IMG/VR virus record: IMGVR_UViG_3300033149_005651
Reading direction: 5' to 3' (one strand)
DNA length: 58,583 nt
Source: an uncultured virus (IMG/VR IMGVR_UViG_3300033149_005651)
Lineage: Duplodnaviria; Heunggongvirae; Uroviricota; Caudoviricetes
The position numbers were made by a program, and so were the translations under genes. The notes below the pieces were generated by a model. It was not told where the DNA came from, made no database searches, and saw nothing but the letters and a program-made list of their open reading frames with translations. Below are positions 7,413-40,355 of the stretch, piece by piece (position 1 is the first letter of the stretch; each line of letters begins with the position of its first letter).

Positions 7413-7419
7413 GAGAGGC

Positions 7420-10178: not shown

Positions 10179-10187
10179 TAAGTATCC

Positions 10188-17881: not shown

Positions 17882-18880
17882 ATGACAAATCAAGACATTA
17901 TCAAATGGCTTTGGCAATATGGGCATTTTTATAACCCAACAATGCCAAATGTGCAAAATATTCAAGCCAGTGATATAACTTCCCTCACTGTTGATGACGA
18001 AACAGTAAAAGAGGCAATTACATCACTCCAAATGCTTGACGCGAATTTCGAACTTTTATCACAACAGCATCATAATCGTGTTGCTCAATTCGACGGAATT
18101 ATTGGTCCAGCAACGCAGGAACTTTTGATGCTCCCACGATGTGGGCAACCAGATTACGAAGATCAAACCGCAACTGGTGAAGGATCATGGCAGGTGCCGG
18201 GATGTGACCCGACTAGGCCAGATCGAGAACACGAACATTCGATTCGGGTCGCAATTAATACTTCAAATGCCAGTTCAAAAGTTAAAGGTTACCTTGATGA
18301 GTCGCTAGAAATGGTGCGAGCGGCTTATGGAGATATGGGACTCTCAGTACGTTATATTCTCGATGGGTCCACCGATGTCGAAATTGTCAAAAGATTTCAA
18401 CGATTGGCTGGGGGTACCATCGGTTGGAATCATGTTTTACAACGTTCAACATGTGCTCAAACCCTAGAAGGTCGCTTAGATAGTGGGTACCAACCAGATG
18501 CCCAATTATTCGCTATTCTTGAATGTCACGAAACCGGACATGGTGTGGGTGCTGGTCATACACGTGGCGGAATCATGAATCCATCGATTCTCAGAGTAAG
18601 CCCACTTTCATGGCGTGGTGATCCAAGCGAATCAAAAATGGTCAGATGGTTTGGCGGGGAACCAATCGATAGTGAACCAAATCCGCCAGCACCAATAATC
18701 AATCCTCCACTAGATGGAGTAATTTATGGCGATCTATTTGATCAAAATAAAATTGCGATTCGTGGTACACTTACTTTAACGATTACTGATGAAAAACCCG
18801 GAGAATATGATTATATTATCGAACCGGTACCAGGAACAGATAATAAGTTCAGAACAGTCCAAAAACCAGATGTAGGTTAA
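17882..18880 (+). CDS. Matrixin (M10, MMP-like) zinc metalloprotease with pro-domain
   Basis: Cysteine switch PRCGQPD, Zn motif HETGHGVGAGH, Met-turn GIMNP, PG-binding-like DGIIGPAT. Confidence 0.85.
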   Translation: MTNQDIIKWLWQYGHFYNPTMPNVQNIQASDITSLTVDDETVKEAITSLQMLDANFELLSQQHHNRVAQFDGIIGPATQELLMLPRCGQPDYEDQTATGEGSWQVPGCDPTRPDREHEHSIRVAINTSNASSKVKGYLDESLEMVRAAYGDMGLSVRYILDGSTDVEIVKRFQRLAGGTIGWNHVLQRSTCAQTLEGRLDSGYQPDAQLFAILECHETGHGVGAGHTRGGIMNPSILRVSPLSWRGDPSESKMVRWFGGEPIDSEPNPPAPIINPPLDGVIYGDLFDQNKIAIRGTLTLTITDEKPGEYDYIIEPVPGTDNKFRTVQKPDVG

Positions 18881-18883
18881 AAA

Positions 18884-19192
18884 ATGACAAGGCAAGTTGA
18901 TCTTGAAAACGGAATCGAAAAAGCAGCTGCAGCTCTTGCAGGACACCAAAGAGAAGAAGTTTCTACACAGTGGCAGCTAATGCGTAATAAACTTGATAGT
19001 TTATTGCTATCAACCCATACTCTCAAAACCGATGAAGTAAGAAGGTTCACTCTACAAATAGATAGTATGGATTACGAACAACGTCGTACATTCATCAACG
19101 CAAATTGGGGATCTGTTTGTTTAGAACGGTGTGTCCCTATTCTTATCCAACTTGAAGCTTTAGAGAAGCACATCGCTAAACAAAATACTTAA
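18884..19192 (+). CDS. Hypothetical protein
   Basis: 102 aa ORF following the protease. Confidence 0.55.
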   Translation: MTRQVDLENGIEKAAAALAGHQREEVSTQWQLMRNKLDSLLLSTHTLKTDEVRRFTLQIDSMDYEQRRTFINANWGSVCLERCVPILIQLEALEKHIAKQNT

Positions 19193-20127
19193 CGGTATTT
19201 ATCGCAATTATCATTAGCTATTTTCTTCATGATTGTGATATCATCATCGCCCACACCTAAATATCTAGCAAGTATAAATTCATCATCTAAGGTAATGGAA
19301 CATTGAATGGGATCATCTGTCCCCAATGTTACTTTTTGCCCAGTGTCAATAAGAGCAATAATAGGATGATAATCAGGATTTGTCCAAACACCCGTTAGAT
19401 AATTACTAGTTAATCCAAGATCAAATGTGATATCGTGATCTAACGCGATTTCCATCATTTCTGATTCGATCATTTTGATCCCATGAGCAATATTGGTTAC
19501 CCCCAAGTGCTGGATAGCATGCAAGCCATTTTCAGCACTTTGGGATTCAGCAACATGTGCTCTGAGCATTTTACCAGCGTTTTTCCATTCTTTGAATATC
19601 GGCTGGTAAAATTTATAATCAAATTGTTCTTCATCACCAACTAAGTCAAGTCCTATTAATCGGTCAGCGATATCTGGATTATTAATTAAATCGGCGTATT
19701 GTCTTTGACTGGCTTTAGTCGATTCATATTTTAGTGATAAAACCAGACCTACTCCGCCTGGTCTGTATGTTTCGAAGCATTCGTGGACGAATTTTATAGC
19801 TTCGTGTTTGTGCCATTTTAATGCGTCCATATATTTGTTGATGGAGAAGTCTAACCAGCAGTAGTCGATTTTTTCTTGTTCTAACTCATCGCATACGGAT
19901 TTAATAGAACTTGCGATTAATCCTTCGGTCCATGGCATATGATCGAGGATTGTGAATTTTGATAGGAATCTATAAAAATCTCTATGTTCATTTGGCGCGA
20001 ATGTCATCGCCGTCACAACATCGGATCGATCTTCAGCAAGATGTTTTAATCCGAGATCTCTGATGACTCGCCATATCCAGTCGATCGGTATTGAACCGCC
20101 AAGGTGTCGGTGGGTATCATATTTCAT
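19189..20127 (-). CDS. add: Adenosine deaminase family protein
   Basis: HRHLGGS, GLDLVGDE, HVAES (catalytic H/E), IAHG and LGTDDP; the metal and catalytic residues are all present. Confidence 0.88.
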   Translation of the reverse strand: MKYDTHRHLGGSIPIDWIWRVIRDLGLKHLAEDRSDVVTAMTFAPNEHRDFYRFLSKFTILDHMPWTEGLIASSIKSVCDELEQEKIDYCWLDFSINKYMDALKWHKHEAIKFVHECFETYRPGGVGLVLSLKYESTKASQRQYADLINNPDIADRLIGLDLVGDEEQFDYKFYQPIFKEWKNAGKMLRAHVAESQSAENGLHAIQHLGVTNIAHGIKMIESEMMEIALDHDITFDLGLTSNYLTGVWTNPDYHPIIALIDTGQKVTLGTDDPIQCSITLDDEFILARYLGVGDDDITIMKKIANDNCDKYR

Positions 20128-20136
20128 AGATCAGAG

Positions 20137-20493
20137 TCATCTGGAAAAGTCATAAAATTCATCAATTGTTGATAGTGATACGCCCGATTTAAGTTCACAA
20201 CATAAAGAATACAGTGGGCTATCTTTTGTGGGCATTTCACATATATCAAGGACTTTATCAACAGTTATTTCATCGATTGGTTTAACTAGACAATATCCAT
20301 GATCTGATGATGTTAATAGACCTACTTTTACCATTCTTGGCAGGATTTTTTGGACATAGCTAACTGATATTCGTACTCGTCCGGCTTTATCCATTATTTC
20401 TGCAATTTGTTTTGAGTCGTGTTCGCTATTATTATGGTGGAGGGCACGTAATACTTCTAAAGCATATTCCATCCCACGCATTTCTTTTAGCAT
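20137..20493 (-). CDS. Rrf2-family winged-helix regulator
   Basis: EYALEVL...ISVSYVQKILPRMVKVGLLTS...GYCLVKPIDEITVDKVL matches the Rrf2 pattern. Confidence 0.75.
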   Translation of the reverse strand: MLKEMRGMEYALEVLRALHHNNSEHDSKQIAEIMDKAGRVRISVSYVQKILPRMVKVGLLTSSDHGYCLVKPIDEITVDKVLDICEMPTKDSPLYSLCCELKSGVSLSTIDEFYDFSR

Positions 20494-20513
20494 AATAGTC
20501 CTTTACTGCGATA

Positions 20514-21866
20514 TTATCGGGTTTTGCCACTACAAATTGTTCTACCGGCTTGTAATACATCTTCTATTTCAGGATCTTGAAATGCGGTGATATCAATATC
20601 ACTACTTATACTATGAATACGTCTTAGGGCTCGTTTATCAAATTGTTCGAATTGTCCTTCTTCAGCGGCTATCATTATTGAGCATAAGAAGAAAAAGAAA
20701 GCTGGTGATATACGCGACACATTAGTATTATTCCTATTATTTGCCCCATCTGTTGACCAATGATAATCGCATAACATAAATGGTACTTTTTTACCAACTT
20801 TATCAGTATCTTTTGGAGAAAGTCCTAAATTAGACAATTTTTTTAATATATCAGTTCTTTCAAATTTTGATGCAGCATCTGTTAGTTCTATTGCATCCGC
20901 TAATTCTACTTGCGATCGGATATATTCACTATTTTTTTCGGATACTTCTTTAAAGAACATATAAAGCGGACCCTTTTCAAGATAATGCATAGCATACATT
21001 GGGCCTGATGTACACCATGTAGAATCCGATTTGATACTTCTATCCATTACTCCTAGTGCCATAGGATTTACATTAGCTTCGAGAGTTGGTCCTTTTCCTT
21101 TTTTCTCTTCTACCCAATTTAATTCATCTTGTGTGGCGTGTTGTAGTAAAATCCAATTGGAGCCATACTCTTGACCATCATCAAGTGTTCTAATAGCAGT
21201 TGCTAGTATTTCAATCTTCTCGTCACCATATTTTCGAGGATCATACATTACCATTTTAAATCTCTCATCTTCTAGGATGTCCGTTCCTAATTTAGCGGCC
21301 CAATCTGTGAGAGAACTTCGAGACTGGGTTTCTGCTTTATCCTCATTGAAATCCGCTAATGTAATTTGTAAATCTTGAAAGGTCTTAAATTGCATTATGT
21401 CCTTAGGACCAGTATACATCGATTTCTTTTTGATTCTATGGAATTTAGCCAAAGACGCTTTTAATGCTCCACCATCTTCTGGTAAATTTATTGATCCTGT
21501 CCCTGTGGTCCTAACAATCCATGGCATATATGTTGCTTTTCGACCCGTCGGATCAAATTGAGCTAGACTTCTAACAATAATTTCAGGATCTGCTTCTATA
21601 CTAGCTTTTTTAGCATATCTATGCATAGGGGTGAATACTTTTCGGGGTCGTTCCGGTTCTTGTTCCGGTTCTTGTTCTATCGGTTCTCCTGATTGATCTA
21701 CTTTTTTCCGCTTTCTTTTAGGTTTAGGATTTAATAATTTATTAACTTGCTTAATACGAGACTGCATTTGGCCTTCTAAGTCTTCAAGAAGGTCTAACGC
21801 AGTTTCAAGACGATAATTAAATCTTCTATCGTTTGACGCGATTAATGAGTTCTCTGACATTGTCAT
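20514..21866 (-). CDS. Hypothetical protein of the jumbo-phage WCT-motif (PcfJ-like) type
   Basis: YMPWIVR, DIMQFKTFQDL and WCTS...YLEKGPLY motifs. Confidence 0.55.
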   Translation of the reverse strand: MTMSENSLIASNDRRFNYRLETALDLLEDLEGQMQSRIKQVNKLLNPKPKRKRKKVDQSGEPIEQEPEQEPERPRKVFTPMHRYAKKASIEADPEIIVRSLAQFDPTGRKATYMPWIVRTTGTGSINLPEDGGALKASLAKFHRIKKKSMYTGPKDIMQFKTFQDLQITLADFNEDKAETQSRSSLTDWAAKLGTDILEDERFKMVMYDPRKYGDEKIEILATAIRTLDDGQEYGSNWILLQHATQDELNWVEEKKGKGPTLEANVNPMALGVMDRSIKSDSTWCTSGPMYAMHYLEKGPLYMFFKEVSEKNSEYIRSQVELADAIELTDAASKFERTDILKKLSNLGLSPKDTDKVGKKVPFMLCDYHWSTDGANNRNNTNVSRISPAFFFFLCSIMIAAEEGQFEQFDKRALRRIHSISSDIDITAFQDPEIEDVLQAGRTICSGKTR

Positions 21867-22266
21867 AAAGCTTTAATGAACGTAATTCGGGAATTGTGAA
21901 AAAACCAACAGCAGAAAATTCATGATTTGGGTCAAGGTCTGGTTTGCTACTTCTTACTTTACATGGTACAAAAGCAACATTTTTATGCTTAACCATTGTA
22001 AACGGTTCACCTACTGCTCTACATCTGACCCCAGTTTCTTCGTAGCATTCTCTTTCAGCCGCTTTTTCGGGGGATTCTCCCCTTTTTATACCACCACCTG
22101 GGTGGCACCATTTATTACTACGACCATCACCGGTTCTATTAGCTAATCCTAATAACCATCGATCCCTATCTTGAACAATAGCAACAGAAGATTTAAAATC
22201 CTCCGTGAATTCTTCTTCTAAAATGAGATCTAGCCCGCAATCAAAATCTAATATTAATTTGCTCAT
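21826..22266 (-). CDS. NUDIX hydrolase
   Basis: Nudix box GGIKRGESPEKAAERECYEETGV; likely start MSKLILD at 22266. Confidence 0.9.
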   Translation of the reverse strand: MSKLILDFDCGLDLILEEEFTEDFKSSVAIVQDRDRWLLGLANRTGDGRSNKWCHPGGGIKRGESPEKAAERECYEETGVRCRAVGEPFTMVKHKNVAFVPCKVRSSKPDLDPNHEFSAVGFFTIPELRSLKLYDNVRELINRVKR

Positions 22267-22269
22267 GTA

Positions 22270-22293
22270 GTATCTTTGAGGGGCAAAAATACA
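22270..22293. promoter_or_regulatory. Back-to-back putative late promoters
   Basis: GTATCTTTG (CAAAGATAC on minus) and CAAAAATACA (+) between divergent genes; the same motif precedes many other genes. Confidence 0.45.
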
Positions 22294-22321
22294 ATGTCCA
22301 TATAACAAATAGGATAGAATT

Positions 22322-23152
22322 ATGAAATCTGTACCATTTAGAAAAAAGCTTGATAATCTTCTAAGAGAAGACCCAACCGCCATCGAAATCGGCGAAATAA
22401 TTGGGAATAATCTCAGTAGCTTCAGAACCTCCCAAGAATTAAAAAAGCATCTCACGGAGGGATCATTATTAAATATTGGCAGAATTTCAGCCGATGCTCT
22501 CTCAATACCTAATGGTAAGTACATGATATGGACAACCGACGTCGGCCACACCATGCTCGTCCCGGTTGAAAGCACACGAAAAAATGAAGAAGTTTTCGAA
22601 AGCAATGGTCAATATGAAGTCCTAACACCAGCTCTAATGAACCAATGGAAAACTCTTGAAAAATGCCTATCAGAAGAACAACCACCAGAATTCCAAGGTG
22701 AAGAATCTGAATCTGAATCTGAATCTGATTCAGATTCCGAATCAAAAGAAAAATCAAACGATACCACAGGAAAACAATTTACCTCAAAGATCGATCCGGG
22801 AAAAATAGACAGAAACCCGATGCTACGAGCGATGGAACAACAAGGGCAAACAGTTACATCCCTAGCCAATGCTACAGGCGTCCAGCCACCGATGATTTCA
22901 CGTCTTTTGCGAACCCCAAAAGATCGACAGGGAGATCCAGGAGGTAGAAACCCAAGTATTGGACTTGCTAGCGCAGTAGCAAATACACTACGAATGGATG
23001 TCGAAGCTCTTTTCCCAGACATTTTCGGGACACCAAAAGGCGACCTTGCACCACGCCAATCACCAGGAAATCGCGGAAGCGGAATGACTGGATCAGCCCA
23101 CGGTTCTAAGCGTAAAGGTGCTGCAACCGAAAAATGGACTCAAGGATCTTAA
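22322..23152 (+). CDS. Protein with a C-terminal XRE-type HTH
   Basis: TVTSLANATGVQPPMISRL...RNPSIGLASAVANTLRMDVEALF, preceded by an acidic ES/DS linker. Confidence 0.75.
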   Translation: MKSVPFRKKLDNLLREDPTAIEIGEIIGNNLSSFRTSQELKKHLTEGSLLNIGRISADALSIPNGKYMIWTTDVGHTMLVPVESTRKNEEVFESNGQYEVLTPALMNQWKTLEKCLSEEQPPEFQGEESESESESDSDSESKEKSNDTTGKQFTSKIDPGKIDRNPMLRAMEQQGQTVTSLANATGVQPPMISRLLRTPKDRQGDPGGRNPSIGLASAVANTLRMDVEALFPDIFGTPKGDLAPRQSPGNRGSGMTGSAHGSKRKGAATEKWTQGS

Positions 23153-23155
23153 TTA

Positions 23156-23557
23156 GTGAAAATCAGAAATATCGCTAATCCTGACGTTTTCTCAGAAATG
23201 ATGTCAGGATCTATGACATCAGCATCTATGATGGATACTGATCCTGGTTCTGATATACCATTAACTTCAACAGAAATCACCCATCAAGCTGATAATATCG
23301 CAGATGAAGAAACATCCGATGAAGTAGCCGATGAATTAAGAGCTGAACAAGAAGAAGAATTAGCCGAAAAAGAACAACGACAACGAATGCTCGAACCACA
23401 AATGGATCAAATGGGAAAATCGATTGGAGCACTCGATCAAGGAATCAGCCTCGGAGCATCACAAGCACGCGATATGGACCAATCACTCGGTGGGCTCGAC
23501 ACCGATATGGCAGCATTAAAAACTGCCCTACAATCATTTGAAAAAGCCGCCTTCTAA
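23156..23557 (+). CDS. Acidic coiled-coil hypothetical protein
   Basis: 133 aa, GTG start. Confidence 0.6.
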   Translation: MKIRNIANPDVFSEMMSGSMTSASMMDTDPGSDIPLTSTEITHQADNIADEETSDEVADELRAEQEEELAEKEQRQRMLEPQMDQMGKSIGALDQGISLGASQARDMDQSLGGLDTDMAALKTALQSFEKAAF

Positions 23558-24315
23558 TGGTACCAGTAGTTATATTGGTCAGAAGAAGTTTCGACTTCTA
23601 TGTCAATAATAAAAGCACGTTGCATGAAAACGCAGCGATGCTAAATAAACACACACAAGGACGCATAGCCGCAGAAGAATGGTGGAAAGAACTATTCGGA
23701 ATCTCTTGGGAACATACTCGCCAAAAGATCTCACGCATCGCAACAGCATTTCTCATGTTCAACTGTAAACCTGACGGAATGTTATTCCATAGCGAATTCG
23801 AGTGTTTGCCGAAAGAAGGATGGATAATCCCAATAGATGATGATGATCTAATAGACCCAAAAATCATCAAAATACTAAGACAAACCGATCTAAAAAATGA
23901 AATGGTAAATTGGGGTGTTTTTAGATTAGGCCATGGGGCAATTATAAGAAGAAGAGTAGGATTCCCATCAAATGGCTACGCAATAAGTGCTGATAAAATT
24001 GTTAGCAATACAGAAATCGTTGTGCAAAGGCACTTACAAGCGGCAAAAGTACGCAGAAAGAATGAATCTATAGAAACATTAGTAACCAAATGCGTCCCAA
24101 TTGATGGGATGTATGGGTGTAAAATAACAAATCCTGCGAGCGTAGGAATGCTTAAAAGTTATAAAACCCGCGAGAATTGTGTGGCAGAAATTAAGAAATT
24201 CCAAAGATCAAATGTTGATGGATTACCAGAAGTTTATAGGACTCACGTGCGGAGAATCATAGATAATTGTTTTACATTTGCGCAGTCTGGATCTGATACT
24301 CGCCTTGTGTCTTAA
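23557..24315 (+). CDS. Hypothetical protein, possible glycosyltransferase-like
   Basis: WIIPIDDDD resembles a GT-A DxD strand; TAATG-coupled to the upstream gene. Confidence 0.4.
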   Translation: MVPVVILVRRSFDFYVNNKSTLHENAAMLNKHTQGRIAAEEWWKELFGISWEHTRQKISRIATAFLMFNCKPDGMLFHSEFECLPKEGWIIPIDDDDLIDPKIIKILRQTDLKNEMVNWGVFRLGHGAIIRRRVGFPSNGYAISADKIVSNTEIVVQRHLQAAKVRRKNESIETLVTKCVPIDGMYGCKITNPASVGMLKSYKTRENCVAEIKKFQRSNVDGLPEVYRTHVRRIIDNCFTFAQSGSDTRLVS

Positions 24316-24610
24316 AATCATAAACGTGCCCACCTACTCTCATTCCAACAACCAATTCTAAATCATCTTCAGCATCTGCGATATCTTCAAGTGCGTTTAT
24401 ATCAACGTCGAATTTTTCTGCCATTTCGCACAAGGTCGGAAGACCACCTTGTTCTTCTATCCGTTTGATATATCTTTTGATTTTTGCAACTAGTTTTTCG
24501 TGATGTTTTATTTCGGTGAGGATATTCCTCAATTCTTGTCGCTTGTGTTTTCGAATTGATAACACATTCTCAGATATATCTTCCGTTCTTTCCGTTGGCT
24601 TCCCTGACAC
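24272..24610 (-). CDS. Hypothetical protein
   Basis: GAGGAG RBS before GTG 24610. Confidence 0.6.
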   Translation of the reverse strand: MSGKPTERTEDISENVLSIRKHKRQELRNILTEIKHHEKLVAKIKRYIKRIEEQGGLPTLCEMAEKFDVDINALEDIADAEDDLELVVGMRVGGHVYDFKTQGEYQIQTAQM

Positions 24611-24690
24611 TTTACGATTCTCCTCAAGTCTTAATAACTAATCGTTGTCAATGATTTTTTTTAATACCGTCATAAAAACAAAGATATGAT

Positions 24691-25899
24691 ATGAAATTAT
24701 CACATATCACAGAAGGTTTTCGGTACGAAACAGATTTATCCTCTGATGAATTGACTGACGCAGACATCAAACTCATCAGGGATAGGGGTCGTTTCATATT
24801 TACTGATACTGATTCTCCGCAAGACTTTATTCATGTTGAAGCGGTAATGGCTAGGAAGGATTTGCAAATAAAACCAAAAGATCCAAATGCATTGTCTACA
24901 TTTGCCGGTGCTGAAATTTGGTTTGGTTTTCAATTAGTTGATCCAACAACTTATCAATCTAATGTAAAAACAGAATATCCACGCGCTGAATTGATATCCA
25001 CAATAAATGAAATTGAAAGCATAGGACATACCCCAGACGGAAGGGGAAAGATCAAAACACTTGATTCTCTAAAAGCTTTATGGAATGAATGGGCATTGTA
25101 TACTAAACAAGCGAATCCTGCATTAGGGCACGATATTGAAGAATATCAAGAACACGTCGATAAAATTAATTTATTAATCCAACAAATGGAATCCAATAGT
25201 TCCACAACGATTCCAGGTTTTCTACAAACATTGGGCAAAACCGATACAATTAGTAAAAGAAAAATTTCAAAGCATCTCAGGCATTTACAAATCGCTTTTG
25301 CTAAAGCTGTGAAAAATCCTGAGAGCGAAAGCGAATTAGAAGTTGCCGAACAATTTTTCAATATGGCAACAAAATTATTTATTACAAAAAGACCGAGAAA
25401 TTATTTATATGTTGCGTATCCTAAATCTTCTAAAGACTTTAACAAAAGTATGGCTAAAATCATAGCCAGAGAAATAGACGCAATCCCAATTCAAATCGAC
25501 AAAGTTAAAACCAAAGATGTACAAATCAATCAACATGAAATGTTGCTAAGAGCCCAGGCGATGGTACAAAAACAACATAAATTGGAAGCAATCGGAGGAA
25601 TTGAATCATCTCATCCAAATTGGCCCCAAGAATGGAGAGATAGAGAAGTTAGAAAGCTCAAATTACAATTACCTAAAAATCCAGATGCAGAGGCAACAAT
25701 AAAAGCATTACACGGGGATAAAAGAAGATATGCTCAACTTTTCGGAATTAGTGATCCAAAACTATTCGCCGGAGAATCAATTTTAGTAGTTGATGATAAT
25801 GTAGCACATCAAGGAACTATGGAAATGCTACATGCTCTCATCAACAATCAAAAACCAGCTCGACTAGACATGTACACACCGTTATTATTGCCTATTTAA
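24691..25899 (+). CDS. Type I phosphoribosyltransferase-like protein
   Basis: C-terminal ILVVDDNVAHQGTM (PRPP-binding loop-like), YPKSS loop, N-terminal MKLSHITE leader. Confidence 0.6.
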   Translation: MKLSHITEGFRYETDLSSDELTDADIKLIRDRGRFIFTDTDSPQDFIHVEAVMARKDLQIKPKDPNALSTFAGAEIWFGFQLVDPTTYQSNVKTEYPRAELISTINEIESIGHTPDGRGKIKTLDSLKALWNEWALYTKQANPALGHDIEEYQEHVDKINLLIQQMESNSSTTIPGFLQTLGKTDTISKRKISKHLRHLQIAFAKAVKNPESESELEVAEQFFNMATKLFITKRPRNYLYVAYPKSSKDFNKSMAKIIAREIDAIPIQIDKVKTKDVQINQHEMLLRAQAMVQKQHKLEAIGGIESSHPNWPQEWRDREVRKLKLQLPKNPDAEATIKALHGDKRRYAQLFGISDPKLFAGESILVVDDNVAHQGTMEMLHALINNQKPARLDMYTPLLLPI

Positions 25900-26367
25900 C
25901 TCATGCTTTGCCGCATCACGGATCTCCATCCAGATCACCCCAAGCGCATTGCTTCCTTCCCATCCGTCGTCGTTCTTGATAGCCCCCCAGAAAAGGTTAG
26001 ACCCACGTCGCCCACGATTAGTGCAATCCTCAATAATCCTCGCGTCATCGGTTTCTAACAGCATTTGGCGGAGATTATCGTGTTGTTGAACTTTCAACGT
26101 AACACAAAATCTCATATTCTGAATATCTGTTGTGCTCAATGGTTTCACAACCATTTTATCACGTTGTCCCTTGGCTTTTAGCTTTGCAGCCATCGGAGAC
26201 TTTTGGGATCGGATCTCTTCTCGGATTTCTTGAGAATCAAATCGAAGAGCTTGAAACAGAGCCTCAGAAGTACGCCATGTCTTACCAAATGCTTCAATTG
26301 GGTACGGACTCATATTACCCAACCAGCCGAATGGCAATTTTACTTTAGTAAATGAGATTTCTTTCAT
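25885..26367 (-). CDS. NADAR (YbiA/DUF1768) family protein
   Basis: FGWLGNMSPYPI, WRTSEALFQA, IIED, FWGA and GSNALG..WMEIR motifs; GAGGA RBS. Confidence 0.88.
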   Translation of the reverse strand: MKEISFTKVKLPFGWLGNMSPYPIEAFGKTWRTSEALFQALRFDSQEIREEIRSQKSPMAAKLKAKGQRDKMVVKPLSTTDIQNMRFCVTLKVQQHDNLRQMLLETDDARIIEDCTNRGRRGSNLFWGAIKNDDGWEGSNALGVIWMEIRDAAKHELNRQ

Positions 26368-26429
26368 GATATCCTCTATATTAGTGATAATACAACGATC
26401 AATTATCTGTTGCAAATCAAAATTGATCG

Positions 26430-27044: not shown

Positions 27045-27061
27045 TATGACTCCATCTATAG

Positions 27062-27084
27062 AAAAAGGGGCTTTTCAGCCCCTT
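27062..27084 (-). terminator. Rho-independent terminator
   Basis: Minus strand AAGGGGCT-GAAA-AGCCCCTT-TTT, downstream of 27108..28862. Confidence 0.8.
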
Positions 27085-27107
27085 AAATACACAAAAAACG
27101 TAAAACA

Positions 27108-28862: not shown

Positions 28863-28973
28863 TCTCTCTCCTATTTCTTATAAGTAAATTTGCCAACGAA
28901 TTTGAATGATTGTACAAATCCGTTTTGCAGCATGTTTTCGGTTGATTTGATCACCAAGTATTATATACACATC

Positions 28974-29402
28974 ATGCGTTATATAGCATACAAGAAGCGA
29001 TTTGATTTTGCATTAGGAAATCATGATAAATATTTATTGTTTCTAAAAAAACATTTCACCGAAACAACACCAACATTTTATATAATAATTGCTAAAAAAC
29101 GTATTAAAACAACGGATGGGATAATGTGGATGGTCAGTTTGGCAAAAGATATTGAGAATCCAGAATATGATGTCATAGCAGAATGTAAAATAAATGGGGA
29201 AAACATATATTTATGGGATAATCATTGTTGGGGAATTGCATTACGTAAGAATGGTGATCCTGCTCGGACGCCAGTCATTGAACCTAACCAGCGTGAGACT
29301 CGACTACGAAATCAATTTGACAAAATATATAAAATTAACCAAAGATCTATGATTTGCAAAACACTGTTATTGTTTAGGATCGGTACTCAAGAGGTAGAAT
29401 AA
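28974..29402 (+). CDS. Hypothetical protein
   Basis: Likely start MRYIAY. Confidence 0.5.
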   Translation: MRYIAYKKRFDFALGNHDKYLLFLKKHFTETTPTFYIIIAKKRIKTTDGIMWMVSLAKDIENPEYDVIAECKINGENIYLWDNHCWGIALRKNGDPARTPVIEPNQRETRLRNQFDKIYKINQRSMICKTLLLFRIGTQEVE

Positions 29403-29403
29403 T

Positions 29404-29745
29404 ATGAAATCATCAACCGCTGTGCTAGCCCCTCCAGAAGAGGGTATTAATGAAGAAAAAACCAAACCAAAAATTCAACCGCCGTATGCAGTCATCATCG
29501 AAAATGATGACTTCCATACATATCCCTATGTTATAGATGTCCTGCAAAAAGTCTTTAGCTTCTCAAAAGAAAAAGCTTTTTTACATGCTGAAAAAGTTCA
29601 TGTAGAGGGAGAAGCTTTAGTATGGAGTGGAAGTCTTGAAGTTGCAGAACTTAAACGTGATCAAGTAAAAAGTGCGGGGCCAGACTTTCATGCTTCTAAC
29701 ACAGTCAAATTTCCGCTTGGTGTCCGCTTAGAACCAATGGCGTAA
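29404..29745 (+). CDS. clpS: ATP-dependent Clp protease adaptor ClpS
   Basis: PPYAVIIENDDFHTYPYVIDVLQKVF...VHVEGEALVW..SLEVAELK...PL.VRLEP. Confidence 0.9.
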   Translation: MKSSTAVLAPPEEGINEEKTKPKIQPPYAVIIENDDFHTYPYVIDVLQKVFSFSKEKAFLHAEKVHVEGEALVWSGSLEVAELKRDQVKSAGPDFHASNTVKFPLGVRLEPMA

Positions 29746-29748
29746 CTA

Positions 29749-30156
29749 TCACTTTTCTGGTTTGCTAAGTTCTTCCTCAACTTGTTTCAATATTGAATTA
29801 TTCGCAAGAATTTTTTGACAATCTCTGGGATTTTCAAATGTGCTTGCAACACCAGTCCATCTAGACATTTCTGACCGCCCATTTCCGCATATATAAAAAC
29901 ATAATGGTCTACGCATGGGTAATTCTCGCATGACGGCATCATGGTCACATATCATTCTGTCCCATAAACATAACGCATTTTCATCAAGATCTAAAATCCC
30001 CCCTAATATAAAATTTTCAGGTGGTCTTTCTATTTCTCTTTTCGCGATTGCTTTAATAAGTGATATAATTGTTTCAACCGATGGGTTTTCATATATTTTG
30101 GTTTTTCGCCCATGATAACCCTCTACATTCCATTCGTTGATATTTTCAAGTTTCAT
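29749..30156 (-). CDS. Hypothetical protein with a MKLENINE leader
   Basis: 135 aa; GGAG RBS. Confidence 0.6.
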   Translation of the reverse strand: MKLENINEWNVEGYHGRKTKIYENPSVETIISLIKAIAKREIERPPENFILGGILDLDENALCLWDRMICDHDAVMRELPMRRPLCFYICGNGRSEMSRWTGVASTFENPRDCQKILANNSILKQVEEELSKPEK

Positions 30157-30183
30157 TTTTATTCTCCATTTTAGGATTTGATT

Positions 30184-30468
30184 ATGAATTGCGACGGATG
30201 TGGTGCGTGTTGCGCAAAAATGGGGACACCACCCTTTTTAGGACATGAAATCTTTGATTTACCAGAAGATTTGCGAGATGAAGTTCTAAAATTTTACAAT
30301 CAACTAGAAGGGTTGAAAAGAGAAGAAAATCGTATGCCATGTTATTGGTATGATACAACAACCAAAAAATGTAAGCATTATGATCATCGCCCGTGGGTTT
30401 GTAAAAACTTTATCGTCGGAAGCGAATCGTGTTTGCTTTGGCGATCACTCGACCCAATCAGCCAATAA
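30184..30468 (+). CDS. YkgJ-family (CxxCxxCC) cysteine cluster protein
   Basis: CDGCGACC...PC.WYD....C..YD.RP.VC..F. Confidence 0.85.
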   Translation: MNCDGCGACCAKMGTPPFLGHEIFDLPEDLRDEVLKFYNQLEGLKREENRMPCYWYDTTTKKCKHYDHRPWVCKNFIVGSESCLLWRSLDPISQ

Positions 30469-30591
30469 TCCCATCACCAACTACAACATTAATATCGCGA
30501 GATTTTGCCCATACTTTGACAGCATCAATTGATTGTGTTGAATAACATGATGCCTTAAAAACACCGATAGCAAGATCTTTATAATGTAACA

Positions 30592-31319
30592 TTAAATATT
30601 AAGATCTTCGGTTTGATCATTTTCCGGCTCAGATTCCGACTCAGGTTGGCTAAAATCAGCTTCATCAAATGCTGACATCTCACCAGCACTAATTTTTATT
30701 TGTGTATACTCCACGCATTTTGAAACAAATAAATAAACAACAAAAGGATTAAGTTGCAATATATCAAATTTTTCAGTTCCCGGAATTGACACACCCTGAC
30801 CCACGCCTTCATAATCAGAATCATTGATTCTATCACCATAAATATCATTACTCCTTTTACTCCTTTTACTCCTTTTACTCCTTTTACTCCTTTTACTCCT
30901 TTTACTCCTGTAAAAATTGTTAAGGCTATTTGACCAAGTACAGATAAAAAGCTAGAAATAAAACTACCAATTCCTTCTATTTGTACATCAGCTAGCATAG
31001 CTTGTTTTAATTCATCGTATGCTTTATTGATCGCATAAGTAAAGAAATCACCTCTTTTTTCACCCACATGTTCCCAAAAATCAAACATTGTTGACCACCA
31101 GTCTTTACATTCTGTGGTCATTTCACCACCATCTTCACCAATTAATGAAAAATCAGCCTCCATACCTTTTTTAGCATGCCGAAACATAAAAACAGAATTA
31201 TCACAAACCATTGCCATTTCATCACTATTGGCCAATTTTTCGCCAAGTTTAGATAATCTTCGCAATCTTTTAATTGCTTCTTTATTAACTGCTGTTTCAT
31301 TTATTGATGAAATTTTCAT
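30592..31319 (-). CDS. Hypothetical protein (MKISSINE leader) interrupted by an apparent -1 frameshift at a 9-bp repeat
   Basis: Frame 0 degrades after (GVK)n. The -1 frame continues as NDIYGDRINDSDYEGVGQGVSIPGTEKFD...EDLNI* to 30592. Confidence 0.5.
30848..30909. repeat. 9-bp tandem repeat, about 7 copies (AGGAGTAAA on minus)
   Basis: CTCCT at 30851, 30860, 30869, 30878, 30887, 30896 and 30905, with no mismatches. Confidence 0.97.
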
Positions 31320-31361
31320 AATGTATTTTTGTGGTAAAAATAATGAAATAGAAAGAATACC

Positions 31362-31700
31362 ATGATTATATTACTTCTTATCTTTTCCGCTACTGAAAAT
31401 GACTATTCTGATGTTTTAGCTAACCAATTAGATGGTCAAAGAGAAGTAAGACTATGGGATGATACTAGGGTAGATATTCTTACTGATGAATACGCCATAG
31501 AAGTTGATTGGGCATATAAATGGGCAGAAGCTATAGGACAATCATTATATTATGGGATTGTCACAGGAAAGAAACCAATGATTATTATCCTTATCAAGGA
31601 TAATACAAAAGATAAAAAATATATTTATCGATGCCAAACTATTTGTACTAAATATGGTATAAAATTAAAATCATATAAAATCCAGGAATTAATCCCATAA
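31362..31700 (+). CDS. Small PD-(D/E)xK-like phage protein
   Basis: E..L.D.TRVDILT...AIEVDW..KWAEAIGQSLYY. Confidence 0.55.
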   Translation: MIILLLIFSATENDYSDVLANQLDGQREVRLWDDTRVDILTDEYAIEVDWAYKWAEAIGQSLYYGIVTGKKPMIIILIKDNTKDKKYIYRCQTICTKYGIKLKSYKIQELIP

Positions 31701-31902
31701 AACCATATTCAAATATAGAATATGCGAGAGACTTGCAACCCTCTAAGAAGGTTATATCAGACATTGTTTCGCCATTTTATAAATCTAAGTTATTTAGAAA
31801 TAAGATGATCGCATTGTGACCAATTGATAGGTTTTCCCGATGGCATCTTTGCTTCCTCCATTCTTCAAACACATCCGTATGAAAGAAAGCAAAGACTTTG
31901 AG

Positions 31903-32970
31903 CTAACCTAATATTATGCGCCAACGTACTACGATCTCAAAATCCTCTGATTTCTTCACCGGAGTTTTGAGGATACGATGGCTAAAAATTCTAAAACCAT
32001 CACGTAGAATGGCGATCTCACCAGTAATTGCATTATTTTCAGAATCTACTGGAGTTCGGTCGAGCGTGATATCACGCCCACCAAGTGCTTTATCAATTAC
32101 TAGATAATATGGAGTTACTTGATCTAATATAGCATCAGCTGCTGCAGTTGATCCAGCTTGGATGATCTTAATTTGATCACCTTCTTTGATTAAATCAACC
32201 TCTGTTTCAGACGGATCAAGAGAAACAGTAGCTGTTCCGCTGGCTGAAGCAACAAATGCATCGCCGCCTGAATTGCCGGTTAAAAAGATATCTCTCGGGT
32301 CACATTCACAAGCACCAACCGAATCTACTTCTGCTGCACCAACAAGAGCTACTTCGGTTAATGTGAAAAAATCACTGGCTGTTACACCAAAACCATTATA
32401 CTCTTCTTTAAGTAATGTTGTTTCTAACACTATTACGTTATTAATCGCTCTGATATCTGATTGTAGCAAAGGAGATCCAGCTGGTTGATAACTTGGTTCA
32501 AAATAAATCCGCTCAATTCTTTTTATAGGTCTTGTTGGTTCAGAAATAGGAACTGCATTAATCAATCCGCCATCATATTCTGCACCGGCACCAAGACTAA
32601 CTGGCACAAATCCGCCAGTTATAGAATCTTCAGTGTAATATCGTGTATCGGCGGCATCTAATGGATTACCTTCACTATCAAATGATGCACCAAAAACGAT
32701 GTATTTTACTGCAAATTCCTCGATATCTATATTATGCGTAACCCATGCTCCTGCTCCACTATCCGCGTTTCTATCCCATACTTTTTCATATGGTAACCTA
32801 TGAGCAAGGATTTCTTTTGCAAAGATTTTGACAATATTTGGTTCTCTGATGCTTTCTATAGTTCGTCCATGAACATCTCTTATTTCAAATTCGATTTCAC
32901 CTTGATATGTTTGTGCAATACCTTTGGTGGTTCGACGTAATCCATATTGTTCTGGTAGTTTGATTTGCAT
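31903..32970 (-). CDS. Putative baseplate/tail structural protein
   Basis: N-terminal G...FEIRD..G......NIV and C-terminal LTEVAL...FSHR....V.KSEDFEIVVRWRI, typical of tail-fibre-anchor/baseplate proteins. Confidence 0.6.
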   Translation of the reverse strand: MQIKLPEQYGLRRTTKGIAQTYQGEIEFEIRDVHGRTIESIREPNIVKIFAKEILAHRLPYEKVWDRNADSGAGAWVTHNIDIEEFAVKYIVFGASFDSEGNPLDAADTRYYTEDSITGGFVPVSLGAGAEYDGGLINAVPISEPTRPIKRIERIYFEPSYQPAGSPLLQSDIRAINNVIVLETTLLKEEYNGFGVTASDFFTLTEVALVGAAEVDSVGACECDPRDIFLTGNSGGDAFVASASGTATVSLDPSETEVDLIKEGDQIKIIQAGSTAAADAILDQVTPYYLVIDKALGGRDITLDRTPVDSENNAITGEIAILRDGFRIFSHRILKTPVKKSEDFEIVVRWRIILG

Positions 32971-32980
32971 TTTCGTAACC

Positions 32981-33274
32981 TTATAAATCTACAAAATGCA
33001 CCTCATAGGTGCCATCATTTCGTTTTTGAATGTCATCAACGATAAATTTACCAGCTGCCATCGGTAGTTTGATTTCTTCTAAATCAATTTGTTTCACCAC
33101 AGCTTTTCGTATACCGTCTTCATCTAAAGCGATTTTAGAAATCTCTTCAGACGCTTGACATAACGTGTCGAATATTTCAAATTGAGATAGAATCACTGGC
33201 CTTAATTCGACTTGCGTCTCAGGCATCAAATGATGTGATTCTATTAATTTGTTCAGTTTGTCTTCTAATTTCAT
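32981..33274 (-). CDS. Hypothetical protein (MKLEDKLNKLIE leader)
   Basis: ATGA overlap with the upstream gene. Confidence 0.6.
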   Translation of the reverse strand: MKLEDKLNKLIESHHLMPETQVELRPVILSQFEIFDTLCQASEEISKIALDEDGIRKAVVKQIDLEEIKLPMAAGKFIVDDIQKRNDGTYEVHFVDL

Positions 33275-33903
33275 GGTACTAATACATTTGGCACATACCA
33301 TGTTTCGGCTGGGACTCGCCGCATTACAATGGTAAAATCATCACCATTATCAAGTTCGTCTCCACCGGCCAATACTACGGATGTGGGGTTTACAGTAGAA
33401 TCCAATTGTGCGTTTCGCGGATCTAGCAAAAGACCATTTTTATAAACATATGGTCTTGAATCGGGATATAAATATGATCGTAACGATGTTGGAATTGTTA
33501 TAAAAGTTATATTATTTGCTATTGATGATCCGCTGAATGATATTTCAGGTGCAAGACTACTTAATGATGCAGATACAGAATTAAACCAGTCAGAAAGTGT
33601 GGTAATATCACCTTCTGCGTCTTCTACTGCAATAACTTCAGAATATGATTTCCAGGTTCCACCAGACCTGATTTTAAGTTGATTTGTGTTTAGATCAAAC
33701 CAAGGAGTTCCTTCTCTATATTGTGTTGGTTCATCGGTCGATGATTGATGGGAAAGCAATCCTATTAAAAACATTCGCATATGATCATATCTAGCCTGTC
33801 CTCCCGGAGGCGGATAGTCATCATGATCTTGGCTTGCTATACCTACATCATTTATAAAATCGATTCTGGTTGCTGGGAATCGCACTCTGTTATCTGTAGG
33901 CAT
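33271..33903 (-). CDS. Putative virion structural protein
   Basis: EP...REG.PWFD....LKI fibre-type motif and VYKNGLL motif; AGGAG RBS. Confidence 0.55.
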   Translation of the reverse strand: MPTDNRVRFPATRIDFINDVGIASQDHDDYPPPGGQARYDHMRMFLIGLLSHQSSTDEPTQYREGTPWFDLNTNQLKIRSGGTWKSYSEVIAVEDAEGDITTLSDWFNSVSASLSSLAPEISFSGSSIANNITFITIPTSLRSYLYPDSRPYVYKNGLLLDPRNAQLDSTVNPTSVVLAGGDELDNGDDFTIVMRRVPAETWYVPNVLVP

Positions 33904-33936
33904 CGTTTTCTCCTATGCTATCTACGTTGTCTACTA

Positions 33937-35205
33937 TTACAGTAAACCAGAACGCCTTCTCATTTTACCAGCAGATAAAACCGGTTTTTGCTGTAACTCA
34001 GCGGTTGGTTTAGGTGCGACAGCTTGAGCAGCGGCTTGCGGGGCGGCTTGAGCTTGTGGATCAACTGGTGCGGCGGCTTGTGGATCGGTTTGCATTCCAG
34101 TATTCATCTGTTGAGCAACCGCACTCTCTTGATCTTGGGGAGATATCGCTTGAGCTATGTCTCTGATTGCACGCTCTTGATCTTTCAACTCATTTTGTTT
34201 TTGAGTTAAAGTCCCAGGAGCTTCACCTTTCGCGAAATCAAGCATATTCTTCAATTGATCTTCAAAATCATTTGGTTTTTCTAACGTTTCTGATGTAATT
34301 CTAGCGATTGGTTGTGGCGAACCAGTCGTCGCATTTTTAACATATAGGATAATTGCTAAGCCATCATCCGATTTTTTCCAATTGATACCCTGTTCTTTTA
34401 GCTTATCTTGTAATGGGCCGATACCCATTTGCTGACCAAGAACTTGAAGTGCACGAGCGAATTTTGCGAAAAGATCTCCTGGTTGAGCACCGGTTGCGGT
34501 TGCCATACCATCAAGTGCTTCAAACAATTGATTATCGAAATTACTTTGTGTTGATGTTGGTTTTAGACCAAGCGTAAGGCATATCTTATTTTCAAATCTG
34601 GTTTCAGGACCTTTAGAAACTCCTTTTTTTGTGCCTTTCGAACTTTGTGATTTGGTTTTTTTACCTAGATCTATTGCTCGTGGTGACGCACCATGTTCTA
34701 CACCACCGACGGTAACATCCGATGTAAGAGCTTGTCTATTTCGACTAGTTTGATTAGCTCTGGTCATTCCACCTGTTGCACTTTTTCGTTGGCTTTCAAC
34801 GATTTTTTTAGCAGATTGGAATAATTTAGTTTCTAATGTTTCAGGTTCTTCAGTTTCTGCAACAACTGAAACCGCCGCCGCTGCTACTCGTTCTTTAAAA
34901 TTCATTGGTTCTCGTTCCTCTCCAGCATCGGATAGGATTTTAGTTATGTCTGACTCAGAGATGGCTTGTAATGAAAACGACAAGATGTTGCCACCTCGCA
35001 CTTTTATCATTTCCATATGAATATCTTCATGGCCAACCATAGGTGAGATATGATCGATAAGACCAAGAAGTTTATTCCTATTCCTCTTGAATATCATCAC
35101 ACCTTGAAGATCAGTCTCATCTGCTACAATGTCATATGGTATATTATTTTTAACACACCATTCATCTACTGCTTCACAAATTTTCTGTAATTTTGAATTT
35201 ATCAT
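33937..35205 (-). CDS. Hypothetical protein, candidate head-internal protein
   Basis: KLQKICE leader, several (I/L)-x-E sites, Q/A/P-rich tail. Confidence 0.55.
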   Translation of the reverse strand: MINSKLQKICEAVDEWCVKNNIPYDIVADETDLQGVMIFKRNRNKLLGLIDHISPMVGHEDIHMEMIKVRGGNILSFSLQAISESDITKILSDAGEEREPMNFKERVAAAAVSVVAETEEPETLETKLFQSAKKIVESQRKSATGGMTRANQTSRNRQALTSDVTVGGVEHGASPRAIDLGKKTKSQSSKGTKKGVSKGPETRFENKICLTLGLKPTSTQSNFDNQLFEALDGMATATGAQPGDLFAKFARALQVLGQQMGIGPLQDKLKEQGINWKKSDDGLAIILYVKNATTGSPQPIARITSETLEKPNDFEDQLKNMLDFAKGEAPGTLTQKQNELKDQERAIRDIAQAISPQDQESAVAQQMNTGMQTDPQAAAPVDPQAQAAPQAAAQAVAPKPTAELQQKPVLSAGKMRRRSGLL

Positions 35206-35756
35206 GATAACCCCCTCGTTTTTCTTGACATTAAACGAGGACGACTACAGTTTTTCCAAGAAACTACATCAAGCTGATTTGCTCTTTTACCTTCGACCAT
35301 CACAACACCTTGACCCATTATATCTTCGCCAAGAATTTTATAATGATTAAAAAAATGATCAAATACAGCCGTAGCTAATATATTTGTATTTTGGTGTAAA
35401 ACAATAGCCGACGGGTTATTATCTATAAATTCGTTTAGAAATGTATCATCATCCGATGACAAAGCCCAAACACCATGTTTGATGTCTGGGCTAAAATTAA
35501 GATTAGTCGATTTATACCCAATTTTACACCCAGTATCATTAACACCTATATTAAGAGAAGGGTGTTTACGACGGGTATTAAGGGCAAGATCACCAGCCAT
35601 ACCCCTTTGGGATACGACTAATTGATTTTGAAGTTCGAAAACTAATTGCTTAGCGGAGTCTAATTTCTGTATAGTCTCCAAAGCAACCTCGATAGGATTT
35701 ATCCTTACCGAGGTGTCTTCAAACATTGCGTCAAGACGATTAGAAAGTAGTGACAT
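35202..35756 (-). CDS. Hypothetical protein
   Basis: GGAGG RBS; ATGA overlap with the next gene. Confidence 0.65.
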   Translation of the reverse strand: MSLLSNRLDAMFEDTSVRINPIEVALETIQKLDSAKQLVFELQNQLVVSQRGMAGDLALNTRRKHPSLNIGVNDTGCKIGYKSTNLNFSPDIKHGVWALSSDDDTFLNEFIDNNPSAIVLHQNTNILATAVFDHFFNHYKILGEDIMGQGVVMVEGKRANQLDVVSWKNCSRPRLMSRKTRGLS

Positions 35757-35808
35757 TGCTCCTCCATACAGACTCAGTTTATTTTTGAGTTGACAGAGGA
35801 GTAATAAA

Positions 35809-37119
35809 CTATCCTAAGTCTGGTACCCAAACCGGCTTAAATTTATTATCACCAGCAGGCGTCATAGCATAAGAAAAAGTATCATCATCTTGTTCAAGCT
35901 TTAATGTGCCACGAATTACATACGCATCATTATGTAATTCACCATATAATTCACCCTCAAGCTTAGGTGCTATTATCGGCCCAGGTCCTGGCCCAGGTCC
36001 CGGCCCAGTGCCCTCAAAACCTTTAACCCATGGAAGCCAAACATAATCACAACTTAATCTATTGATGACATCCGAAGCCCACCATACCCAAGCACCTGAT
36101 GGTTTAATACCCCACCAATCTGGCCAATACTTATCAGCAGTTTCTCCACGCCAACCAGAACCCCATGTCTGATTCATAATAACTGGATAATCGTTGTCGC
36201 GAGGAGTAACCCCAATCACATCCTTACAGAATTTGCGAAATTCATCGCTATCATCACATCCAACAGCGGATTGCATGTGAGGACCAACACGACCAATCGA
36301 AAACGGAGCACTACTACCACTAGTACGTGTACCAGAAGTATGAATAATAGCACCAGCAGCAAAAGCTTTCCGCATTTCCTTCACCCCGCCTTGGAATCTG
36401 GTAATAGCACCATCTTCGTAGGGGTGATGTTCTATAAGATAATCTTTTAGCCATCCAGGCTGACTACGACACCAAGTCCGTGCACATAATTTTTCGTTCT
36501 CATCATTATCCGTAAAATCAGTGCTATTACCATCAATATTATAAGGAATCCGGAATGCAGCACCTACTTTATAAGCAGCAGAAGCAATTCCACTACCATT
36601 CCATCCATCAGAACAATACCCACGGAACGCATATTTCCACCACGCGCTTGAATACTTCCATTGTTCATTGTATTTCGGCGTTATGGCACGAACACCGAAA
36701 AGAGCACATTCGTGCTCTGCACAAGAAGCATCTACACATGACCCATATTTCTGGTGCACATCATATGGAGCAACACCTTGCCTACCATTTTTCACCCAAC
36801 AATCAAGGGCATGTCGAAAATTAACTAAAACTTCTCCAGCACCATCTCCCTCCAAACGGGGAAGGACATCGCCAAAAAGTTTAGTTTTAGTCGGCACGTT
36901 TGAATGTACTGGTGAAGTAAATTCATCATCTAACCATTTAGCAGCGCGTCTTGCCCATTCCGGTTGGTCCTCTTCGTCGATGAATACACCGACAAAGCCA
37001 GATCCTGGAGAATAGATCGCTTCAATAATTGAAGTAGCGGTAGCTGCTGACGCATTTTGCAATGCTGCTTCAATTCTATTAGTCTCAGGAATCAAACCCG
37101 CTAAAAAATTGGTAGGCAT
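35809..37119 (-). CDS. Papain-like (C1/clan CA) cysteine peptidase
   Basis: Oxyanion Gln and catalytic Cys in QKYGSCV, His in PHMQSAVG, NQTWG..W.G; then a (GP)n linker and a C-terminal domain. Confidence 0.75.
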   Translation of the reverse strand: MPTNFLAGLIPETNRIEAALQNASAATATSIIEAIYSPGSGFVGVFIDEEDQPEWARRAAKWLDDEFTSPVHSNVPTKTKLFGDVLPRLEGDGAGEVLVNFRHALDCWVKNGRQGVAPYDVHQKYGSCVDASCAEHECALFGVRAITPKYNEQWKYSSAWWKYAFRGYCSDGWNGSGIASAAYKVGAAFRIPYNIDGNSTDFTDNDENEKLCARTWCRSQPGWLKDYLIEHHPYEDGAITRFQGGVKEMRKAFAAGAIIHTSGTRTSGSSAPFSIGRVGPHMQSAVGCDDSDEFRKFCKDVIGVTPRDNDYPVIMNQTWGSGWRGETADKYWPDWWGIKPSGAWVWWASDVINRLSCDYVWLPWVKGFEGTGPGPGPGPGPIIAPKLEGELYGELHNDAYVIRGTLKLEQDDDTFSYAMTPAGDNKFKPVWVPDLG

Positions 37120-37152
37120 GGCGCTAATCCTTAATAGTTAAACGTTTTCTAA

Positions 37153-37812: not shown

Positions 37813-37840
37813 AAGAATCTCCCTAAGGTTATCGAAAAGG

Positions 37841-39318: not shown

Positions 39319-39363
39319 GGTAGCTCCAATATTTAAGATACTCACCATATATTTGATAAACAA

Positions 39364-40266: not shown

Positions 40267-40355
40267 AACTAGAACCTTTCTTAAACATGTTAAAAATATC
40301 ATCATCTCTTACCCACACTGTCTTTTACTTATATACATTAAAAGTATATAGGAGC

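Follow-up and report, generated by a model that had tools for sequence, protein, structure and literature searches.

A shared C-terminal tail on two unrelated phage proteases and an exported phage protein as its candidate docking partner

Why would two proteases with unrelated catalytic domains, encoded in one phage genome, end in the same short domain? The question is raised by a 58,583-nucleotide stretch from an uncultured Caudoviricetes virus (IMG/VR record IMGVR_UViG_3300033149_005651), the whole of which we refer to as the window and which is probably part of a large phage genome (56 open reading frames (ORFs) scanned). In the protein records the longest contig reaches 120,583 bases. Protease A (17882..18880, plus strand, 332 aa) is a matrixin-like metzincin, and protease B (35809..37119, minus strand, 436 aa) has a C1A-like papain fold with an N-terminal extension. 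The original prediction held that a common C-terminal module docks swappable protease heads on the virion or on a component of the host envelope. Our analyses support the module and instead identify a phage-made exported protein, which we call F2 (37153..37863, minus strand, likely start ATG at 37803), as the best candidate for its ligand. A comparison with 50,697 deposited phage records found no relatives of A, B or F2.

Both ORFs and both tails were found where the original prediction had placed them. Tail A (59 aa; 18701..18877, plus strand) and tail B (54 aa; 35812..35973, minus strand) share 39.7% identity over 58 columns (tblastn E 1.2e-7 within the window), and no third copy was detected in the window. 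Their local BLOSUM62 score of 88 compares with a mean of 22.7 (sd 4.4, maximum 49) for 5000 shuffles, so the anticipated alignment proved significant. When the whole proteins were compared, the best local alignment comprised the linker and tail, scoring 112 against a mean of 36.2 and a maximum of 66 in 2000 shuffles. The heads are unrelated, as had been claimed (hhalign of head-only profiles, E 0.18). Furthermore, positions 35825-35975 are covered by a contig of a public sequencing run with zero differences.

Homologue searches yielded 147 relatives of A, 120 of them listed, and 61 of B. Tail profiles were built from 14 A-family or 40 B-family tails, with the window proteins and their nearest relatives left out. 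The A-family profile matched 41 of the 61 papain-family proteins and the B-family profile matched 19 of the 120 metzincin proteins (E<1e-3), and at this threshold neither profile matched any of 181 reversed decoys. This profile cross-matching confirms, at the family level, the tail as the same module on two unrelated protease families. By a crude hydropathy test, a signal-like N-terminal stretch was present in none of the 120 A-family and none of the 61 B-family homologues (0/181), in line with the claim that the proteases have no obvious signal peptide.

The invariant residues and profile matches of protease A identify it as a latent metzincin with a prodomain. The HExxHxxGxxH zinc motif (H216, E217, H220 and H226) and the Met-turn (M232) of matrixin/MMP-like metzincins are invariant in 113 sequences, and the cysteine switch C87 is invariant in the 113 aligned members. 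The family profile matched adamalysins in the PDB (E 7e-9), and its positions 71-95 aligned with the MMP-9 prodomain (E 0.004), giving A both a prodomain and a cysteine switch. PF00413 matched 12 of the 113 members at E<=0.01 (best 2.9e-5), with no match at threshold for the window protein itself, and PG_binding_1 matched three. A further Cys pair (C108 and C191) is conserved, and a Pro-rich linker, located in A at approximately 18662..18700 (plus strand), occurs in 112 of 120 homologues. Thus A resembles matrixins (PF00413) and adamalysins in its prodomain, cysteine switch, three-histidine zinc motif, Met-turn and Pro-rich hinge, but differs from matrixins in falling below the Pfam threshold, in having no signal peptide and in carrying the tail where MMPs have their hemopexin domain.

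Protease B was assigned to the papain fold from its homologues, its model (predicted local distance difference test (pLDDT) 93) and Foldseek. The top PDB matches were all of the C1A family, with xylellain the best (E 2.5e-4, TM-score by target 0.51) and falcipains and procathepsins also among them, and the best papain-fold match in BFVD reached E 1.1e-5. Q123, C128 and H281 are invariant among 57 B homologues. Gln317, found in at least 90% of them, occupies what we take, from the family motif and not from superposition, to be the position of the usual catalytic Asn. B is therefore like xylellain-type C1A enzymes (PDB 3ois) in its fold and in having Gln, Cys and His in place, but unlike them in its low identity (~14%), the lack of any Pfam match in the 57 family members, the Gln at the usual Asn position and the C-terminal beta tail. 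A published account mentions enzymes of the xylellain type in tailed phages (PMC10380794). The B family also has a conserved Cys pair (C169 and C217), and a Gly-Pro linker at approximately 35974..36012 (minus strand), of low pLDDT in the model, leads to the tail. In one relative (P0183, 784 aa), the B-family protease is split by an intein with a LAGLIDADG domain beside the catalytic Cys motif.

What kind of module is the tail? The AlphaFold2 model of tail A (pLDDT 90, predicted TM-score 0.68) predicts a module of four antiparallel beta strands (residues 4-13, 17-28, 34-42 and 50-54). Pfam searches of 48 tails gave six families, each in one of 48 members and none at threshold (best E 0.024); a PDB sequence search with the tail profile gave no convincing match, its matches to designed propeller repeats being set aside as repeat noise; and BFVD gave no match at E<=0.001. 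Comparison of the fold with 48,161 chains yielded a best Z of 4.3 and none of at least 5, a 59-residue sheet giving little signal in such a search. An Atlas feature search returned no match at >=0.9, where a blank shows nothing. The tail therefore showed no match to a known generic binding domain in Pfam, the PDB or viral folds. Its nearest, non-significant fold neighbours are blades of lectin propellers (Z 4.3, rmsd (root mean square deviation) 2.6, 43 residues), among them a multi-chain propeller lectin. Given that the modelled tail is a single four-stranded sheet resembling one such blade, it might self-oligomerise with one blade per chain, clustering the enzymes so that A and B co-assemble. 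This would leave the linkage and covariation with F2 described below unexplained, and we regard it as very unlikely. Many tails are short: 12-34 residues follow the linker in 67 of the 120 A-family proteins and in 7 of the 61 of the B family. Forms of two to three strands are common. The last residue is V, I, L or F in 76 of 120 and 51 of 61 proteins, respectively.

The tail profile matched 46 of 1.84 billion protein representatives. Multi-stretch matches in repeat proteins accounted for 24 and were set aside as noise (four of the nine scanned have PKD_5 repeats). The other 22 were single C-terminal matches, comprising 13 B-family and 5 A-family proteins together with P0195, P0184, P0219 and P0207. 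The predicted exchange of heads is accordingly real but narrow, as 18 of these 22 matches carry the same two heads; judged by these profile matches, the tail is confined to few heads. A 'longer' tail-profile search gave 11 matches, all on the two known heads, which is weak evidence. P0195 has a third, unrelated head, which matched nothing in Pfam, NCBIfam, PHROGs or PDB sequences and for which no locus was found; from its motifs we presume that it is perhaps another papain-like family. P0184 (264 aa) has hydrophobic segments, no protease motif and a full tail at its end (62.6 bits). P0207 (42 aa) is a free-standing tail piece on two contigs, the longest of 3462 as for the tailed metzincin P0046, and could be the truncated terminus of a protease gene next to it.

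In a tree of 85 tails the two heads are mixed, with 8 changes of head (bootstrap range 7-10) against a shuffled mean of 22. Well-supported branches force at least two changes, although the bootstrap had not settled. The mixing suggests that the tail probably moved between heads, and more than once. As matches of each other, the two window tails rank 1 of 25 and 4 of 60; concerted evolution of both tails within a genome was considered and found no support beyond the window lineage.

If the heads are exchanged, what stays in place beside them? Single-protein scans of viral contigs with A or B gave nothing, and loci were found with alignments. Among 29 papain loci fetched, 23 remained after two duplicates and four without upstream DNA were dropped. 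All but one of these (22 of 23) have F2 just upstream of the papain gene, in one case with a single gene between, and F2 occupies the upstream position at 7 of 10 metzincin loci as well. In one locus (L007) F2, papain and metzincin genes stand in tandem and both proteases are tailed. Unrelated heads are thus exchanged beside one fixed partner, F2, and the only part common to both heads is the tail. The tail is frequently absent at loci that lack a short-module F2: without F2, the metzincin of L037 stops after its catalytic domain and the protease of L029 has another C-terminus, while in L027 and L045 an F2 of the Ig class stands beside papains without the beta tail. The L029 protein (9566-10954) combines a B-family head with a C-terminal domain weakly matching tail fibre J (E 0.006), with no F2 upstream.

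F2 has a signal-like N-terminus, a 39-residue beta module (37615..37731, minus strand; 28-45 aa in relatives, with a conserved Gly-x-Tyr), a Pro linker, a helical domain and a C-terminal amphipathic helix, and is mostly helical by sequence pattern. It matched nothing in Pfam, PHROGs or NCBIfam, and the Atlas feature search gave no usable match, a blank there showing nothing. A second F2-like protein (39364..40305, minus strand) lacks a C-terminal amphipathic helix, and its N-terminal domain is a full Ig/PKD-like one. It matched an F2 profile built without it (E 6.9e-7), and its match to PKD_4 (E 0.098) was below threshold. Two acidic low-complexity genes (37841-39363) separate F2 from this exported, F2-like protein, which has no protease directly behind it. 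In three relatives (L013:8316-9188, L031:8782-9750 and L044:1480-2466) the F2 frame extends upstream into extra hydrophobic segments, resembling a small membrane protein fused before the leader. Small genes behind the protease with an F2-like terminal amphipathic helix (L009:11325-11549, L004:11791-12222, L032:11186-11416 and L033:11528-11809) are candidate membrane-active accessories.

A signal-like stretch was found in 26 of 31 F2 rows, as opposed to none of the 181 proteases, and by eye the F2 leaders resemble ordinary cleavable signals. This bears on the possibility of a virion site. In that reading the tail would anchor the proteases to the particle, either to get through a protein-rich envelope at entry or to mature the particle. 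The proteases themselves have no signal peptide, as such a role would suit; the window encodes a virion structural protein (PHROG 3758, E 1e-28) and a Tail_P2_I-like protein; the cassettes of L003, L004, L020 and L031 lie among head or tail genes; and one Ig-class F2 relative matches a virion protein family. However, tailed virions assemble in the cytoplasm, for which the signal-like N-terminus of F2 is unfit and thus argues against a dock on the virion, and the cassette shifts between several genome positions. Virion docking is hence less likely, and we consider it quite improbable.

The linkage could also mean that F2 is an inhibitor, timer or substrate of the proteases, so that the envelope is protected or cleavage is timed. 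The two-gene linkage is strict with either head, and a published account of Listeria describes such a pair, in which the TIMP-like partner (Tim) of a phage-derived metzincin (Mtz) is cleaved (PMC8235301). In the present case one protein would need to inhibit both active sites, which are unrelated to each other; by sequence pattern F2 is mostly helical, it matches neither TIMP nor any other family, and both enzymes already look latent. We think this quite unlikely, if marginally less so than a virion site. According to the same text, the phage-linked Listeria metzincin is encoded beside an exported partner, has the envelope as its site of action and favours lysis (PMC8235301). The present cassette likewise pairs a metzincin with an exported partner, but Mtz carries a signal peptide of its own, and the TIMP-like Tim is a lipoprotein; relative to what that text describes, the shared docking tail and the papain alternative appear only here (PMC8235301).

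Does the tail bind F2? The pair of F2 (192 aa) and tail B (55 aa), chosen beforehand from the gene linkage, was co-folded with ESMFold2. It scored 0.48 (runs 0.51, 0.48 and 0.43), compared with 0.01 for the best of three controls, with contact agreement of at least 71% and partner pLDDT of at least 69. Among solved complexes 116 of 157 reach the mark that this pair passed, as do 2 of the 215 mismatches, although passes at <=0.60 comprise only 18 of the 157 solved complexes and both passing mismatches. Moreover, in Mantel tests over 17 related papain-F2 pairs, tail distance correlated with the F2 helical domain (r 0.42, p 0.001; partial 0.36, p 0.005) and with the F2 beta module (r 0.26; partial 0.19, p 0.048), as against r 0.20 (p 0.086) with its own head. 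The tail thus follows F2 better than it follows its own head, even though the head lies between F2 and the tail.

These results bear on whether the tail instead binds a host envelope component directly, as an endolysin cell-wall-binding domain does, with F2 a separate membrane-disrupting lysis accessory. The order of head, Pro linker and tail is the endolysin layout, the nearest though non-significant fold neighbours of the tail are lectin blades, in BFVD some phage proteins with the papain fold bear the name muramidase or peptidoglycan-binding (E 3e-3), and gene linkage alone does not require binding. On the other side, tails of 12-34 residues would be too short for a self-folding ligand domain, and the tail and F2 covary and form a pair that weakly passes the complex mark. 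We therefore hold direct host binding to be unlikely, and physical docking of the tail on F2, whatever its purpose, to be somewhat probable. The docking idea of the original prediction thus survives in part: a mobile C-terminal module without a known-domain match, linked to the product of 37153..37812, passed the proposed co-folding check weakly for tail B (0.48 against 0.01), but its best candidate ligand is revised to the phage-made, exported F2.

How might so short a tail dock? A speculative possibility, which we rate as unlikely, is that the tail and the short F2 beta module are two halves of one split beta-sandwich, so that fold complementation would serve as a universal plug recruiting any hydrolase to the exported scaffold. 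F2 with three to four strands would stand beside strand-supplying proteases, and whole Ig/PKD-like F2 beside tailless papains (L027 and L045). Published text on Ig domains describes half-domains that can swap between chains (PMC8470474). Hints come from a match in length between the first tail hairpin and the F2 module and from P0219 (164 aa), in which a signal peptide, the F2 beta module, the linker and the start of the helical domain are fused in frame to the tail; P0219 is a single record and may be a deletion or an assembly chimera. A short first hairpin goes with a short module (6 short versus 8 long pairs, U=2, p=0.005, kinship uncorrected) among 14 four-strand pairs, three two-strand tails being left out and the count for one hairpin redone by eye. 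Of three contrasts on the head tree, two are in agreement and the third (L005 and L012) is not. Homology between the F2 beta module and the tail, suspected by eye, was not supported (hhalign 7.9 versus 6.6±1.4, maximum 11.1, in 60 column shuffles). Direct profile tests gave no significant homology of either part to an Ig-like domain: the tail scored 11.9 against the N-domain of Ig-class F2 (shuffles 8.0±1.7, maximum 12.2), and the F2 module 8.6 (shuffles 7.1±1.5). The tail scored 18.3 against PKD_5 repeats (shuffles 8.1±1.3), but those proteins had been selected by the tail search. An F2-module profile matched seven proteins at >6 bits, six of these matches lying in tails.

What would docking on F2 achieve? 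In the reading that we hold, with somewhat less than even confidence, the tail docks latent proteases onto phage-made, membrane-tethered F2 for envelope breakdown at lysis, probably in a planctomycete host. The signal peptide of F2 would direct its export, and the C-terminal amphipathic helix would keep it at a membrane, as its sequence suggests. The proteases would be made as cytoplasmic zymogens, with latency expected from homology for A and from the N-terminal extension for B. They would cross the inner membrane late, probably via a holin lesion, and the tail would then add its strands to F2, a step for which linkage is observed and binding weakly predicted. Once docked outside the inner membrane, the enzymes might be activated, cut envelope proteins or peptide cross-links, and aid progeny release. 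In this genome protease A has no partner gene next to it and would rely in trans on F2, whose gene is 18 kb away. We infer the lysis role, the export route and the substrate. The conserved non-catalytic Cys pairs of both families would fit an oxidising site, where they may form disulfides.

Lysis genes usually lie between replication genes and the terminase, and the cassette is often found in this slot. In the flanks of 16 loci, the terminase large subunit was present in six and a primase upstream in four, the others having head or tail genes; thus the cassette occupies several genome positions. Small hydrophobic ORFs adjoin it in several loci, with none adjoining in the window. Family scans found no muralytic family among the window ORFs, and endolysin families were absent, as far as the best five families per protein show, from the 144 flanking ORFs of the 16 loci.

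Evidence on the host came from cellular genomes. The sole papain match among 185,579 species genomes was a record titled uncultured Pirellulaceae. Among 401 genomes of the planctomycete phylum, the only phylum sampled, F2 matched four and the metzincin two; the tail profile, run without a positive control, matched none of the 401, and an Ig-class F2 profile recovered only its own seed in 391 genomes. One F2-papain pair sits well inside a large contig and has an identical counterpart in a viral contig, which fits a prophage. The hosts are likely planctomycetes, although the evidence is thin.

Several points weigh against lysis by docking on F2. The complex of F2 and tail B is a weak pass for which no interface was returned; F2 also tracks the head (r 0.53), and the Mantel tests overstate independence, the 17 pairs being related. 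Two tails from the same genome are not always each other's nearest match (ranks 7 and 11 in L007, 10 and 41 for P0075/P0163). In L030 and L036 the metzincin has another C-terminal extension and the upstream exported protein does not score as F2, while the Ig-class F2 relative P0227 matches PHROG 34543, 'virion structural protein' (E 2e-5). No holin-like gene adjoins either protease in the window, holin and spanin families likewise did not appear among the best five families per protein in the 144 flanking ORFs of related loci, and the endolysin check covered flanks rather than whole genomes. Finally, the host of this phage itself is inferred. The exported protein directly upstream of the L030 metzincin (1016-2080) has Ig-like, helical and, by eye, probably thioredoxin-like parts.

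The design of the cassette resembles that of modular or two-chain lysins, built on an undescribed domain and partner. Modular phage endolysins also join unrelated heads to one C-terminal module through a flexible linker, have no signal peptide and often occupy the lysis slot, but here a metzincin zymogen and a C1A-like papain fold take the place of muralytic families as heads, and the tail has no known binding-domain match and seems tied to a phage-encoded partner. In PlyC of streptococcal phage C1, the catalytic chain PlyCA, which has a papain-like domain, docks on the separate PlyCB. The likeness is one of layout, with no homology seen and none searched for, and it differs in that the partner here is exported and the dock is common to two unrelated enzymes. 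Cohesin-dockerin systems, too, use a short terminal module to recruit varied enzymes to an envelope-anchored scaffold, but the tail is all-beta, without calcium-binding repeats or a Pfam family at threshold. In literature on planctomycete phage lysis, phage matrixins or papains, and split Ig domains, we found no account of the tail, F2 or the cassette, an unnamed domain being hard to find and subscription journals lying mostly outside the scope.

The remainder of the window is mostly of unknown function. Annotated genes include dUTPase, thymidylate kinase, ClpS and a sugar epimerase, and host-like genes at 19189-20493 and 29404-29745 are adenosine deaminase-like, an Rrf2 regulator and a ClpS adaptor. 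Three genes within 37-8231 (37-4968, 6330-7412 and 7728-8231) have mutual sequence similarity, and the product of the first is a repeat-rich protein of 1643 aa. Promoter-like sites in 33000-41000 were at chance level (22 versus 25.6±4.2 expected).

Peptidoglycan has been found in planctomycetes, after earlier views of a protein wall. How phages escape from these hosts is an open question; in published text the planctomycete envelope is described as a disulfide-linked protein sacculus (PMC2754498). With the present finding, what had been a loosely defined 'protease cassette' becomes a mechanism of two parts that can be tested, a tail of 55 residues and a specific partner, each of a size suited to expression and assay. 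If binding is confirmed, the two would form a new protein-protein docking pair explaining the exchange of unrelated enzymes in one cassette, and possibly a small tag-and-catcher pair for protein engineering. If the split sandwich is true, planctomycete phages would gain protease-based lysis without a muralytic enzyme.

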